Assembly: GCF_003334785.1 (NCBI RefSeq)
Contig: NZ_QOWV01000003.1
DNA length: 64,000 nucleotides
Direction: 5' to 3' (one strand)
Source: Escherichia coli
Lineage (GTDB): Bacteria; Pseudomonadota; Gammaproteobacteria; Enterobacterales; Enterobacteriaceae
Part shown: positions 53,145-56,013 of the stretch, piece by piece
Layout: every line of letters starts with the position of its first letter
Position numbering within the stretch: the stretch's first letter is position 1
Position numbers and translations under genes: made by a program
The notes under the pieces: generated by a model
What the model saw: only the letters and a program-made list of their open reading frames with translations
The model's database searches: none
Told to the model about the DNA's origin: nothing

Positions 53145-54116
53145 TTACTTAGCTGCCTGAATATCAGCCAGCATTGGGGCAAGGGCTGGGTTGTCCTTAG
53201 CGAAGTTTGCGTACATTGGCTGTACTTTCTCGATAAACGGAGCTTTATCTACCTGGTAGACTTTCACGCCCATTTTATCCAGTTTTGCAAATTCTTGTTT
53301 CTCTTCCTCGCTCCACAAGTCTTTCATGTAGCTCATTGATTCTTTAGCTGCTTTTAATATAACTGCCTGATTTTCCTGGCTAAGTTTATCAAACGCAGCA
53401 TTGCTCATCAGAACCACATCGGGAACCATAGTGTGTTCGTCAAGGCTGAAGGATTTTGCCACTTCACCGTGACGCATGGTAGTCAGCGCCATCACGCTGT
53501 TTTCTGCCATATCGACCACACCCTGCTGTAAGGCTGTATACAACTCGCCGTAATCCAGTGGCGTCGGGTTACCGCCCATGACTTTGATCATTTCAACTGC
53601 GCCAGGGCTTGGCTGGACACGGACTTTCATGCCTTTCAGATCGTCTGGTTTCAGTACTGGTTTATTGCCATAGAAACTGCGGGCGCCTCCATCATAAAAA
53701 GTCAGCCCGAAATAACCTTTGCTTTTCGTTGAGTCGAGGATTTTTCTCCCGATATCGCCCTGCATGACCTGATAATAATGATCACGATCGCGGAACAAAT
53801 AAGGCAGGCTAAATAATTTATAGGAATTTTCAAATGCTTCCATTTCTGCCGCATTGGTTTTTACCAGGGGAATAGCGCCAGAACGAATCAGCTCCATTGT
53901 TTCTCGTTGAGTACCCAATGTTCCATTTGGATAAATACGAATAGTAATATCACCGTTAGAGTACTCTTTGCTCTTTTTCGCAAAGAACTCCATCGCTTTA
54001 TGAACAGGATGAGACTTATCCTGATTATGACTCAGTTTTAATGTCACTGCCCAGGACTGGCTTGCGGATAACATAAGAACAGCACCGATAATGCCAGCGG
54101 ATACTTTTATTTTCAT
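53145..54116 (-). CDS. TRAP transporter periplasmic solute-binding protein (DctP family) with a signal peptide
   Basis: Track ORF of 323 aa: N-terminal signal peptide (MKIKVSAGIIGAVLMLSASQSWA) and a DctP-like fold with an Arg in the GARSFY context, the position where DctP-family proteins carry the carboxylate-binding Arg. Family call from sequence features only. Confidence 0.8.
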   Translation of the reverse strand: MKIKVSAGIIGAVLMLSASQSWAVTLKLSHNQDKSHPVHKAMEFFAKKSKEYSNGDITIRIYPNGTLGTQRETMELIRSGAIPLVKTNAAEMEAFENSYKLFSLPYLFRDRDHYYQVMQGDIGRKILDSTKSKGYFGLTFYDGGARSFYGNKPVLKPDDLKGMKVRVQPSPGAVEMIKVMGGNPTPLDYGELYTALQQGVVDMAENSVMALTTMRHGEVAKSFSLDEHTMVPDVVLMSNAAFDKLSQENQAVILKAAKESMSYMKDLWSEEEKQEFAKLDKMGVKVYQVDKAPFIEKVQPMYANFAKDNPALAPMLADIQAAK

Positions 54117-54168
54117 AGATGTTCCTTTTCTAATAAATATGGCGGCAGGTGCCGCCAGTGAATGCGCA

Positions 54169-55470
54169 TCAGTAGCCCAGTGCTCTTGGCAATGCCATAC
54201 TGATTTGCGGAATATAGGTCACCATTGCCAGCACCAATACCATCACGGCATAGAATGGCAGCATAGGTTTGATAATTTTATTAATCGGTAATTTAGATAC
54301 ACTACAACCGACAAATAACACACTGCCTACAGGCGGAGTACAAATACCGATACACATGTTCAGTACCATGACAATACCAAAGTGAATCGGGTCCATGCCC
54401 AGTTCGGTGACAACCGGTAAAAATATCGGCGTAAAAATCAGTACCGCCGGTGTCATATCCATAAAAGTGCCGATAATCAACAGGATAATATTGATAATAA
54501 GCAGGATTATTATTGGGTTGTCAGAAATAGTGTTAAGCAAATCGAGAATCAGGAAGGGAACGTCAGCGTTTGACATTGCCCATGACATACCCATCGAAGA
54601 ACCAATTAATAACAAGACAATTGCAGTGGTAATAACGGATTCCAGAAATATTTTAGGTAAATCTTTAACTGAGATTTCACGATAAAGAACCAGTGCAAGG
54701 AAAAGGGTATAAATTACTGCAATTGCGGAGGCCTCTGTCGGGGTAAAAATACCACTTAATACACCCCCCATAATTAAAATAATCAGGAAAATACTGGGGA
54801 TAGCCATCCATATCGCAACGCCAGCCTGGCGTAAAGTCGGGCGTTCTGGCTTTGGATAACCGCGACGTACCGCGATAATACCGGCTATTACCATCAGTGC
54901 CAGACCCAGCAAAATTCCCGGAACATAACCCGCCAGGAACAGTGCGGCAATAGAAGTACCACCACTGACCAGTGAATAGACGATTAACGTATTACTTGGT
55001 GGAATAAGCAAACCCGTCGGGGCAGAGGCAACGTTAACCGCAGTACTGAATGCCGGGTCGTAACCCTCTTTAACCTGTTGCGGATGCATGACGCCGCCCA
55101 TCGCAGCCGCCGAAGCCACGGCTGAACCAGAAATTGCCCCGAACAGCATATTGGCGAGAATATTACAGTGGGCAAGTGAGCCTGGCAGACGACCGCCGAG
55201 AATACGGGCAAAGTTGATTAATCGTCGCGCTATTCCTCCATGGTTCATAATGTTGCCAGACAAGATAAAAAATGGGATTGCCAACAACGTAAAACTATCT
55301 AACCCGGAGGCTAACTTTTGGGAAACCACACTCAATGCTGAGTTGAAATCGAGTTGTGTGGAAATTGATGCCAGTGTCGATAAACCAATGGCATAAACAA
55401 TAGGTACACCTAATGCCAACATAAAAAAGAAGGCACCAAATAACACAATAATCGGTAACCAGTAATCCAT
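54169..55470 (-). CDS. TRAP transporter large permease (DctM family)
   Basis: Track ORF of 433 aa, polytopic and highly hydrophobic with a DctM-like arrangement; directly upstream of the binding-protein gene. Confidence 0.85.
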   Translation of the reverse strand: MDYWLPIIVLFGAFFFMLALGVPIVYAIGLSTLASISTQLDFNSALSVVSQKLASGLDSFTLLAIPFFILSGNIMNHGGIARRLINFARILGGRLPGSLAHCNILANMLFGAISGSAVASAAAMGGVMHPQQVKEGYDPAFSTAVNVASAPTGLLIPPSNTLIVYSLVSGGTSIAALFLAGYVPGILLGLALMVIAGIIAVRRGYPKPERPTLRQAGVAIWMAIPSIFLIILIMGGVLSGIFTPTEASAIAVIYTLFLALVLYREISVKDLPKIFLESVITTAIVLLLIGSSMGMSWAMSNADVPFLILDLLNTISDNPIIILLIINIILLIIGTFMDMTPAVLIFTPIFLPVVTELGMDPIHFGIVMVLNMCIGICTPPVGSVLFVGCSVSKLPINKIIKPMLPFYAVMVLVLAMVTYIPQISMALPRALGY

Positions 55471-55512
55471 AATTTCTCCATTCCTACTATGGTTGGTTGT
55501 TGTTTGTTATCT

Positions 55513-56013
55513 TTAGAGTGGTTGTTTAAGTTCGGTTAAAACCATATCTATGGTGTATATAATAATAAGTACACCACTAATCGGGATGCTCATATAGATA
55601 TATCCCATTTGCCAGCCTAAAGCGGGCGAGGTCTGACCTGAATCGAATGTATCCATCGTTAATAGCCCACCACCATATACCATAATGATGGTTGCGAAGA
55701 TAATAACGATAATCTGAATACACAAAAATAAATGACGTCGGGCTTTTCCTTTCAGCATCATAGGTAGCAGGTCAATCGCCAGATGCCGGTTTTGCCCTGC
55801 GGTGTATGCCCCACCAAAAAGTCCAAGACAAATAAAGAGCAAACGGCTGAGTTCATCTGTAAAAATACTGGGACTAGTAAATATAAATCGTGCAGCCACC
55901 TGCCACGTCACACATGCCACGATGATCGCCAAAATGGTAATGTTCAATGCTGCAAGCAGAGCATTAATAGATCTAATTATATTTCGCATAGTGATTAACC
56001 TTTGCAATATCAT
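55513..56013 (-). CDS. TRAP transporter small permease (DctQ family)
   Basis: Track ORF of 166 aa with four hydrophobic segments; its start overlaps the stop of the upstream FAD gene (ATGA). The true start could be the internal Met nine codons in. Confidence 0.75.
   Translation of the reverse strand: MILQRLITMRNIIRSINALLAALNITILAIIVACVTWQVAARFIFTSPSIFTDELSRLLFICLGLFGGAYTAGQNRHLAIDLLPMMLKGKARRHLFLCIQIIVIIFATIIMVYGGGLLTMDTFDSGQTSPALGWQMGYIYMSIPISGVLIIIYTIDMVLTELKQPL

Follow-up and report, generated by a model that had tools for sequence, protein, structure and literature searches.

The locus studied here raises the question of why the transporter genes of a catabolic operon in Escherichia coli are richer in A+T than the enzyme genes to which they are linked, and of whether this contrast records a separate origin of the transporter. 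The operon lies in a 64,000-nucleotide stretch of DNA (contig NZ_QOWV01000003.1 of assembly GCF_003334785.1), hereafter the window, which is E. coli chromosome with the gene order frd-efp-hfq-ula-rpsF/priB/rpsR/rplI ... ytfB. Between rplI and ytfB a nine-gene unit was found, which encodes a divergently transcribed TetR-family regulator, a short-chain dehydrogenase/reductase (SDR), a TIM-barrel protein, a crotonase, a coenzyme A (CoA)-transferase, a flavoprotein, and the DctQ, DctM and DctP subunits of a tripartite ATP-independent periplasmic (TRAP) transporter. A reading of the sequence alone had noted the AT-rich transporter genes and proposed that they may have been acquired or assembled separately. 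We conclude that the AT-rich stretch is probably a TRAP importer, and that it fills a slot for exchangeable transporters where an old enterobacterial operon for CoA-dependent carboxylate catabolism has its distal end.

When base composition was calculated, the transporter region (53145-56013) had 43.7% G+C, against 52.7% for the enzyme block (56014-62068) and 51.6% for the whole window. The contrast within the operon is thus as described before, and the four 60-nucleotide counts on which that description relied were exact (30.0% at 54481-54540, 40.0% at 54421-54480, 36.7% at 55561-55620 and 53.3% at 58801-58860). At 1-kb resolution, G+C dips to 43-45% across 53-56 kb. Stretches of 2,869 bp outside the island between rplI and ytfB have a median of 52.5% and a minimum of 45.2% G+C, so the transporter region lies below all of them. 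The slightly larger segment 53087-56250 has 43.5% G+C, and the minimum for stretches of the same size elsewhere in the window is 46.0%.

The G+C content of third codon positions (GC3) was compared with the values expected from the amino acids encoded, with the window's own synonymous usage in 48 non-island genes as the background. GC3 is 0.46 in dctP (expected 0.57; z = -4.6), 0.44 in dctM (expected 0.62; z = -8.0) and 0.40 in dctQ (z = -6.0), whereas the enzyme genes range from 0.50 to 0.57 and the 48 other window genes have 0.586. Pooled, the TRAP genes have a GC3 of 0.439 where 0.603 is expected, and the enzyme genes 0.529 where 0.589 is expected. The amino-acid-conditioned residuals are -0.174 and -0.050, respectively, a difference of -0.124 (z = -6.2; permutation p < 5e-5), and the TRAP genes are lower than the enzyme genes in 15 of 18 codon families. 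The difference therefore persists when amino-acid composition is taken into account. The earlier suggestion that membrane-protein composition is partly responsible holds for only about one third of the effect. The observed G+C of the TRAP genes is 0.441, that expected from their amino acids 0.503 and the background 0.538, so that 0.035 of the deficit of 0.097 comes from amino-acid composition and 0.063 from synonymous choice. Membrane-protein genes elsewhere in the window are not AT-rich (GC3 of 0.69 in ulaA, 0.66 in mscM, 0.59 in frdC and 0.64 in frdD), and the gene for the soluble periplasmic DctP is GC3-low as well.

Codon-preference indices gave a more mixed picture. With an index of the codon adaptation index (CAI) type, dctQ, which also has the lowest GC3 residual, scored lowest among the window genes, dctM was low and dctP ordinary. 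This index was built on a few highly expressed window genes, and a frequency of optimal codons (Fop) index was used beside it. Both discriminate less than GC3, since A or T is the last base of many optimal codons in E. coli. The same feature is presumably the reason for the low GC3 of rplI (window 52584-53033; 0.43, z = -3.2), a case which indicates that GC3 is no simple index of foreignness in E. coli. A second run of depressed GC3 after amino-acid control was observed in yjfI, yjfJ, yjfK, yjfL and yjfM (window 36609-39501; z = -4.7 for yjfI, -3.9 for yjfL and -2.7 for yjfM), yet these are core genes.

The AT-rich tract does not end with the transporter genes. It runs about 240 nucleotides into the 3' end of the flavoprotein gene, where GC3 is 0.27 over the last 96 codons, against 0.54 in the body of the gene; along the operon, GC3 falls at about 56290, to 0.22-0.33. 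The features concerned are as follows.

53055..53081, plus strand: intrinsic terminator hairpin of rplI (12 pairs, then a T-run); the variable segment begins at about 53087
53087..56250, minus strand: exchangeable low-G+C cassette, comprising dctP, dctM, dctQ and the last ~80 flavoprotein codons, recognized by composition and by the collapse of identity
53145..54116, minus strand: dctP, periplasmic solute-binding subunit, 323 aa (TIGR00787, 246.5 bits against a cut-off of 175)
54169..55470, minus strand: dctM, large membrane subunit, 433 aa (TIGR00786, 458 bits against a cut-off of 268)
55513..55989, minus strand: dctQ, small membrane subunit, 158 aa when the RefSeq start is used (PF04290 DctQ, E = 3e-30)
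56010..56250, minus strand: 3' tail of the flavoprotein gene, inherited with the transporter cassette (52% identity between TRAP and MFS haplotypes; GC3 0.27)

When this region was compared among E. coli genomes, haplotypes with the TRAP genes, with a gene of the major facilitator superfamily (MFS), with hipBA plus the MFS gene, and with the yjfZ segment of K-12 were observed. On the left side, all of them are identical through the rplI terminator and its T-run and part at the same base, at about 53087 (blastn alignments end at 53086-53094). On the right side, TRAP- and MFS-type haplotypes are 97-100% identical over the enzyme genes and collapse to about 55% at about 56250-56330, inside the flavoprotein gene; residues 1-613 of the flavoprotein are 99% identical between the two types and the last ~80 residues 52%. 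The exchanged unit is therefore the segment of about 53087-56250, that is, the flavoprotein tail together with dctQMP, and the low-G+C tract coincides with it: the drop in GC3 falls at the right breakpoint and not at the gene boundary. The slot is bounded by the rplI terminator and by a conserved stretch near flavoprotein codon 613, and it holds TRAP genes, an MFS gene, an MFS gene with a MaoC gene, or the K-12 deletion remnant. No integrase, insertion sequence (IS) element or tRNA is annotated at the cassette, and the repeats at its edges are short and at chance level only. TRAP-type and MFS-type species of Klebsiella likewise differ over a corresponding segment, which begins in the 3' end of the flavoprotein gene and stops where the transporter ends.

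A survey of 5,426 complete E. coli genomes found the enzyme block in 3,114. The present TRAP module is carried by 1,446 genomes (27%), an MFS gene occupies the same position in 1,686, the K-12-like yjfZ segment is found in about 2,513, and the version with an MFS gene and a MaoC dehydratase in two. In K-12 MG1655 a deletion remnant stands in place of the operon (locus L004 2629-4096, equivalent to window 61878-61979 and 62526-62928). Its parts are yjfZ (GC3 0.37), a fragment of 102 bp that matches the 5' part of the SDR gene at 81% identity, and the 3' 402 bp of the TetR gene, known as ytfA. K-12 thus lacks the present system. The sequence-only reading, however, knew of no canonical DctPQM system in K-12 at all, and this was not supported: K-12 has YiaMNO, for which there are NCBIfam equivalog models (Plantinga et al., as cited in PMC7660916). 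YiaMNO is a TRAP transporter of 2,3-diketo-L-gulonate.

The third haplotype (E. coli loci L009 and L010 and Salmonella locus L097; about 7300-13000 of the locus) has no crotonase-type hydratase gene, and a gene for a MaoC-type (R-specific) hydratase follows its MFS gene, an apparent non-orthologous replacement of the hydratase step. Its operon is 79-92% identical to that of the window, and its ytfB 99%. Some MFS-type genomes have a toxin-antitoxin pair of the hipBA kind between rplI and the MFS gene (L005 2495-4256, strain JJ1887; L009 13105-14867). In JJ1887 hipA is frameshifted, E. albertii (L100 9630-10121) has the helix-turn-helix (HTH) gene only, and an EamA-family gene stands at this position in Klebsiella, Salmonella and two further enterics. 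In strain CUWW10 (NZ_CP182145.1), IS1 copies within dctP interrupt the TRAP module. A few matches to the island are on plasmid records. A variant of DctP from E. coli CP125919 (L011), with 86% identity, was disregarded, as its locus is in many fragments and is probably an assembly error.

The same operon was also found at the rplI-ytfB site in other genera. It carries TRAP genes in Klebsiella sp. RHBSTW-00484 and in two further enterobacterial contigs, and an MFS gene in K. oxytoca, Salmonella enterica and E. albertii; Salmonella has the MFS plus MaoC version as well, and Entomohabitans has the operon at the same site. The operon is thus ancestral at this site, and the earlier view of a TRAP importer as atypical content was not borne out. 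The MFS protein of E. coli shares only 51-52% identity with its positional counterparts in Salmonella and K. oxytoca, although identity of the enzymes reaches 87-92%. The slot has at least two lineages of MFS protein besides the TRAP lineage.

Outside the enterics, a contig of Rhodocyclaceae (Uliginosibacterium-like; L014) carries this operon as well, with dctQM and with dctP inverted; its chromosomal context is unrelated. Its DctP, DctM and DctQ are 76, 86 and 65% identical to those of the window, and its enzymes only 42-62%. In the other enterics the corresponding values are 79-85, 93-94 and 69-76% for the transporter proteins and 76-93% for the enzymes, and within this group DctP changes no more slowly than the enzymes do. 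By these pairwise identities, the transporter proteins do not follow the divergence pattern of the enzymes, which supports a history of the transporter module separate from theirs. The synonymous divergence between genera, estimated by the method of Nei and Gojobori (NG86), is saturated (proportion of synonymous differences, pS, 0.6-0.8) and uninformative for dating the TRAP genes against the enzymes. In L014, a genome of 63.5% G+C, GC3 is about 0.8 in TRAP genes and enzyme genes alike, and low G+C is therefore not intrinsic to the TRAP proteins.

The proposal of a separate acquisition or assembly is thus supported in so far as a separate history is concerned, given the TRAP/MFS swap, the sharp breakpoints and the incongruent divergences. 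It does not follow from the G+C contrast, and the acquisition was not a recent one. The contrast alone is insufficient because tetR, which is co-inherited with the enzymes, is equally AT-rich in every lineage (in the window, GC3 0.40, z = -5.3). The real evidence for a separate history is the structural polymorphism together with the incongruent protein divergences.

By family criteria, dctP, dctM and dctQ are predicted to form a complete importer of the DctPQM type. The three genes are adjacent, all on the minus strand (53145-55989), with gaps of 42-52 nucleotides. In addition to the matches listed above, DctP scores 251 against a cut-off of 50 with NF037995, and its N-terminus, MKIKVSAGIIGAVLMLSASQSWA followed by V, resembles a Sec signal peptide, with SWA as its last residues before this V. 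The RefSeq start of dctQ is at 55989; the start at 56013, which had been taken before, is an in-frame upstream ATG that overlaps the stop codon of the flavoprotein gene. In the 52-nucleotide spacer between dctM and dctP there is a G+C-rich stem-loop, TGGCGGCACCTGCCGCCA (window 54140-54157, minus strand), followed by a T-rich tail, which might serve as an internal attenuator or as a hairpin that stabilizes the mRNA.

The best solved relatives of DctP are hexuronate-binding proteins (E = 7e-71 to 5e-62), among them 4X8R with glucuronate and 4N8Y with galacturonate (PMC11668362). When DctP is aligned with the structures that hold glucuronate or galacturonate, its residues R146, R166 and N206 prove to be conserved (PMC7660916, PMC11668362), and an Arg/Arg/Asn triad coordinates glucuronate in such binding proteins (PMC7660916). 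R166 lies in the motif KVRVQ and is matched, in 4ovr, 4x8r and 4n8y, by the arginine of a conserved K(I/F)RVQ; its counterpart is Arg170 of STM3169, the arginine that pairs with the substrate carboxylate (PMC7660916). Relatives of DctP in Vibrio and Providencia, at about 60% identity, are found in uxaC/uxuA/GH2 loci. The module of the window has no such linkage, its neighbours being CoA-dependent enzymes, and the label of hexuronate transporter was not assigned, as uxaC or uxuA/B are not linked to it despite the conserved triad. Identity with YiaMNO was also rejected (290.6 against a cut-off of 800 for the YiaN equivalog, and 36.3 against 260 for YiaM). All MFS variants of the slot match best the D-galactonate-transporter (anion:cation symporter) subfamily. 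The most likely reading of these matches is that both cassettes, TRAP and MFS, take up one sugar-acid-like carboxylate or two similar ones, and that the TRAP version may do so at higher affinity by means of its binding protein.

A mechanism for the exchange can be proposed. The cassettes would be swapped by homologous recombination between related operons that bear different transporters, with crossovers in the conserved segment of the flavoprotein gene and beside rplI. The TRAP cassette would have entered the enterobacterial operon lineage apart from the enzymes, long ago rather than recently. Once imported, the acid might be activated by the CoA-transferase and then pass through steps of the flavoprotein, the hydratase, the SDR and the TIM-barrel enzyme, under control of the TetR regulator.

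Several observations weigh against the exchange as the full account of the composition and against a history apart from the enzymes. The incongruence with a non-enterobacterial operon is drawn from one locus (L014) and from pairwise identities. The locus L015, from a divergent Escherichia lineage, is TRAP-type and collinear with the window, with 92.8% nucleotide identity across 15 kb. Its TRAP genes share 89-93% identity with those of the window, its enzymes 91-94% and its flanks 93-95%, so that the divergence of the TRAP genes is flank-like. Over the four enterobacterial TRAP-type loci the divergences of TRAP proteins and enzymes roughly co-vary. Finally, a foreign composition should have ameliorated by now, yet the GC3 of the TRAP genes trails that of the enzymes by 0.08-0.18 in each enterobacterial host (TRAP 0.40-0.46 and enzymes 0.50-0.57 in the window; 0.54-0.58 and 0.55-0.68 in L098; 0.43-0.55 and 0.61-0.71 in the Klebsiella sp. 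locus L007; 0.60-0.71 and 0.76-0.79 in L099).

These points bear directly on the main rival, or co-factor, of the proposed reading, in which the AT-richness is a steady state of weakly selected, weakly expressed or polymorphic DNA, with less GC-biased gene conversion and selection in places where a homologous partner is missing from many strains, and possibly with silencing by H-NS that is tolerated or favoured. In this view the exchange is real and not the cause of the composition, which then carries no information on origin. We consider this possible, though not probable, as a full explanation. The GC3 of the TRAP genes climbs with the G+C of the host (0.44, 0.50, 0.56, 0.67) while the lag is kept, and tetR is AT-rich at all loci (GC3 0.37-0.58) though co-inherited with the enzymes; persistent gene-specific AT-richness therefore exists in this operon without cassette exchange. 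The MFS cassettes, yjfZ and the MaoC gene also lie below the enzymes, and the flavoprotein tail is AT-rich (GC3 about 0.27) in both haplotypes. A steady state accounts less well for the Rhodocyclaceae locus, in which there is no GC3 lag, and for the position of the GC3 drop at the recombination breakpoint. Some of the AT-richness may thus reflect a steady state of DNA that is polymorphic and under weak selection, and not a foreign residue.

A further account would make the TRAP/MFS alternative an old trans-species polymorphism kept by selection, in which a high-affinity scavenger and a low-affinity proton symporter serve the same host- or diet-derived sugar-acid-like nutrient. The ~80-residue tail of the flavoprotein would here be co-inherited by functional coupling and not by hitch-hiking, and the AT-richness would be maintained, for example in H-NS-silenced, conditionally expressed DNA. 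We regard this combination as rather unlikely.

Still less credit can be given to a classical recent horizontal acquisition from a low-G+C donor, such as Vibrionaceae or Morganellaceae, with a composition not yet ameliorated. The low GC3 and the restriction of the module to 27% of E. coli genomes would be expected of it, and beyond the operon family the next relatives of DctP (55-61% identity) are indeed from Vibrio, Photobacterium, Psychromonas and Providencia. However, relatives of the Vibrio and Providencia type stand in hexuronate or glucuronide loci and not in the present operon. The closest relatives (76-86%) come from other Enterobacteriaceae, where they occupy the same site, and from the high-G+C Rhodocyclaceae genome. 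Because the cassette is as diverged as its flanks in L015, it is not a recent import, and flanking direct repeats are absent from the cassette, as are the mobility genes and tRNA mentioned above. That the low G+C is merely the composition of Ile/Leu/Phe-rich membrane proteins, with nothing evolutionary to explain, is most improbable: G+C at first and second codon positions is low in dctM and dctQ as this would predict, but as a sufficient explanation it is refuted by the GC3 residual test, and the Rhodocyclaceae orthologues have a high GC3.

The remaining genes of the operon were characterized as follows.

56251..58091, minus strand: body of an FAD-dependent oxidoreductase (whole protein 693 aa), distantly of the NadB/FrdA type, from remote matches
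58088..59629, minus strand: fused family-I CoA-transferase, 513 aa (FadX, PcaI/J and AtoD-type models; annotated as acyl CoA:acetate/3-ketoacid CoA transferase)
59639..60415, minus strand: crotonase-type enoyl-CoA hydratase/isomerase, 258 aa (family models and annotation)
60425..61267, minus strand: xylose-isomerase-like TIM-barrel protein, 280 aa (family models and annotation)
61277..62068, minus strand: short-chain dehydrogenase/reductase, 263 aa (NF009386, 417 bits against a cut-off of 250)
62281..62928, plus strand: TetR-family regulator, divergently transcribed and AT-rich, the intact form of the K-12 pseudogene ytfA (models and annotation)

For the flavoprotein, NCBIfam and the PDB gave remote matches only, to L-aspartate oxidase and fumarate reductase flavoproteins, and PF00890 is recorded for its homologues. 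The family of about 690 aa is widespread: among the matches listed, homologues at 37-62% identity occur in Rhodobacteraceae, Rhizobiaceae, Planctomycetota, Lentisphaerae and some Enterobacterales. In the species-wide scan the matches listed were mostly such distant homologues (at most 62%) in other gene contexts; the Klebsiella and Salmonella operons were found by exact-protein look-ups. Among the same matches, homologues of the flavoprotein often adjoin homologues of the SDR and the TIM-barrel protein without a CoA-transferase or hydratase, which suggests that these three form a conserved enzyme core of uncharacterized role. The TIM-barrel protein has close solved relatives (3qc0 and 3ju2, E = 1e-84), both uncharacterized. 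Literature searches on the operon, on yjfZ/ytfA and on the TIM-barrel structures turned up no functional description in the library searched, where ytfA is mentioned only as variably present in E. coli (PMC6790063). A 188-aa open reading frame antisense to rplI (window 52557-53123, minus strand) matched no protein family and is almost certainly a spurious shadow of that gene.

The first 100% match for the island came from E. coli ML35 (NZ_CP025747.1; L002 and L003). Its identity to the window falls to 85-95% in two blocks, frd-ampC-mscM and aidB-ula (window 1-19400 and 40700-49320), and is 100% between them. Most other E. coli are 95-100% identical to the window in those blocks, and ML35 appears to carry imported, highly divergent segments, an oddity of ML35 and not of the window. 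It was for this reason rejected as a coordinate template for the whole window, and the genes were re-mapped with blastn.

The locus provides a well-bounded natural example in which the enzymes stay while the importer and the 3' end of the adjacent gene are apparently replaced by recombination, and it illustrates that a compositional dip can mark a replaceable segment without meaning recent transfer. This uncharacterized CoA-dependent pathway, with a TRAP or an MFS importer, is present in over half of the complete E. coli genomes and has been lost in K-12. Strain-specific use of gut nutrients could depend on the operon, and the binding protein offers a convenient handle for finding the substrate.

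When the locus is set beside known systems, the TRAP transporter is an uncharacterized member of a well-known family. It shares with the hexuronate-binding TRAP systems (Salmonella STM3169-3171; 4X8R, 4N8Y, 4N91, 4MHF and 4N15) the three-gene DctP/DctQ/DctM architecture and the R146/R166/N206 triad, and it differs from them in its linkage to CoA-transferase, hydratase and flavoprotein genes instead of uxaC/uxuAB. YiaMNO belongs to the same subunit families and is also from E. coli, but it differs in locus and operon, and the proteins of the window score far below its equivalog cut-offs. With classical genomic islands the cassette has in common an atypical composition beyond the amino-acid effect, a variable presence and an insertion point beside a conserved gene. 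It differs from them in its lack of mobility genes, of a tRNA and of flanking repeats, in the synteny of its operon across genera and in an exchange that apparently proceeds by homologous recombination within the operon. The closest parallel in kind is given by the sialic acid clusters, in which several non-homologous transporters (the TRAP system SiaPQM, the MFS protein NanT, and members of the ATP-binding cassette (ABC) and sodium:solute symporter (SSS) families) serve one catabolic cluster (PMC8461474). There, too, TRAP or MFS transporters are paired with the same catabolic genes in different genomes, whereas at the present locus the alternatives segregate within one species at one site, the breakpoints are defined at base level, one of them lies inside the upstream enzyme gene, and the pathway is uncharacterized. 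Transporter displacement and the AT-richness of accessory genes are already known, and current concepts are unchanged. The locus is somewhat unusual in the alternatives within one species and in the boundary inside an enzyme gene; as variation of the accessory genome it is ordinary in kind, though its limits are unusually clear.

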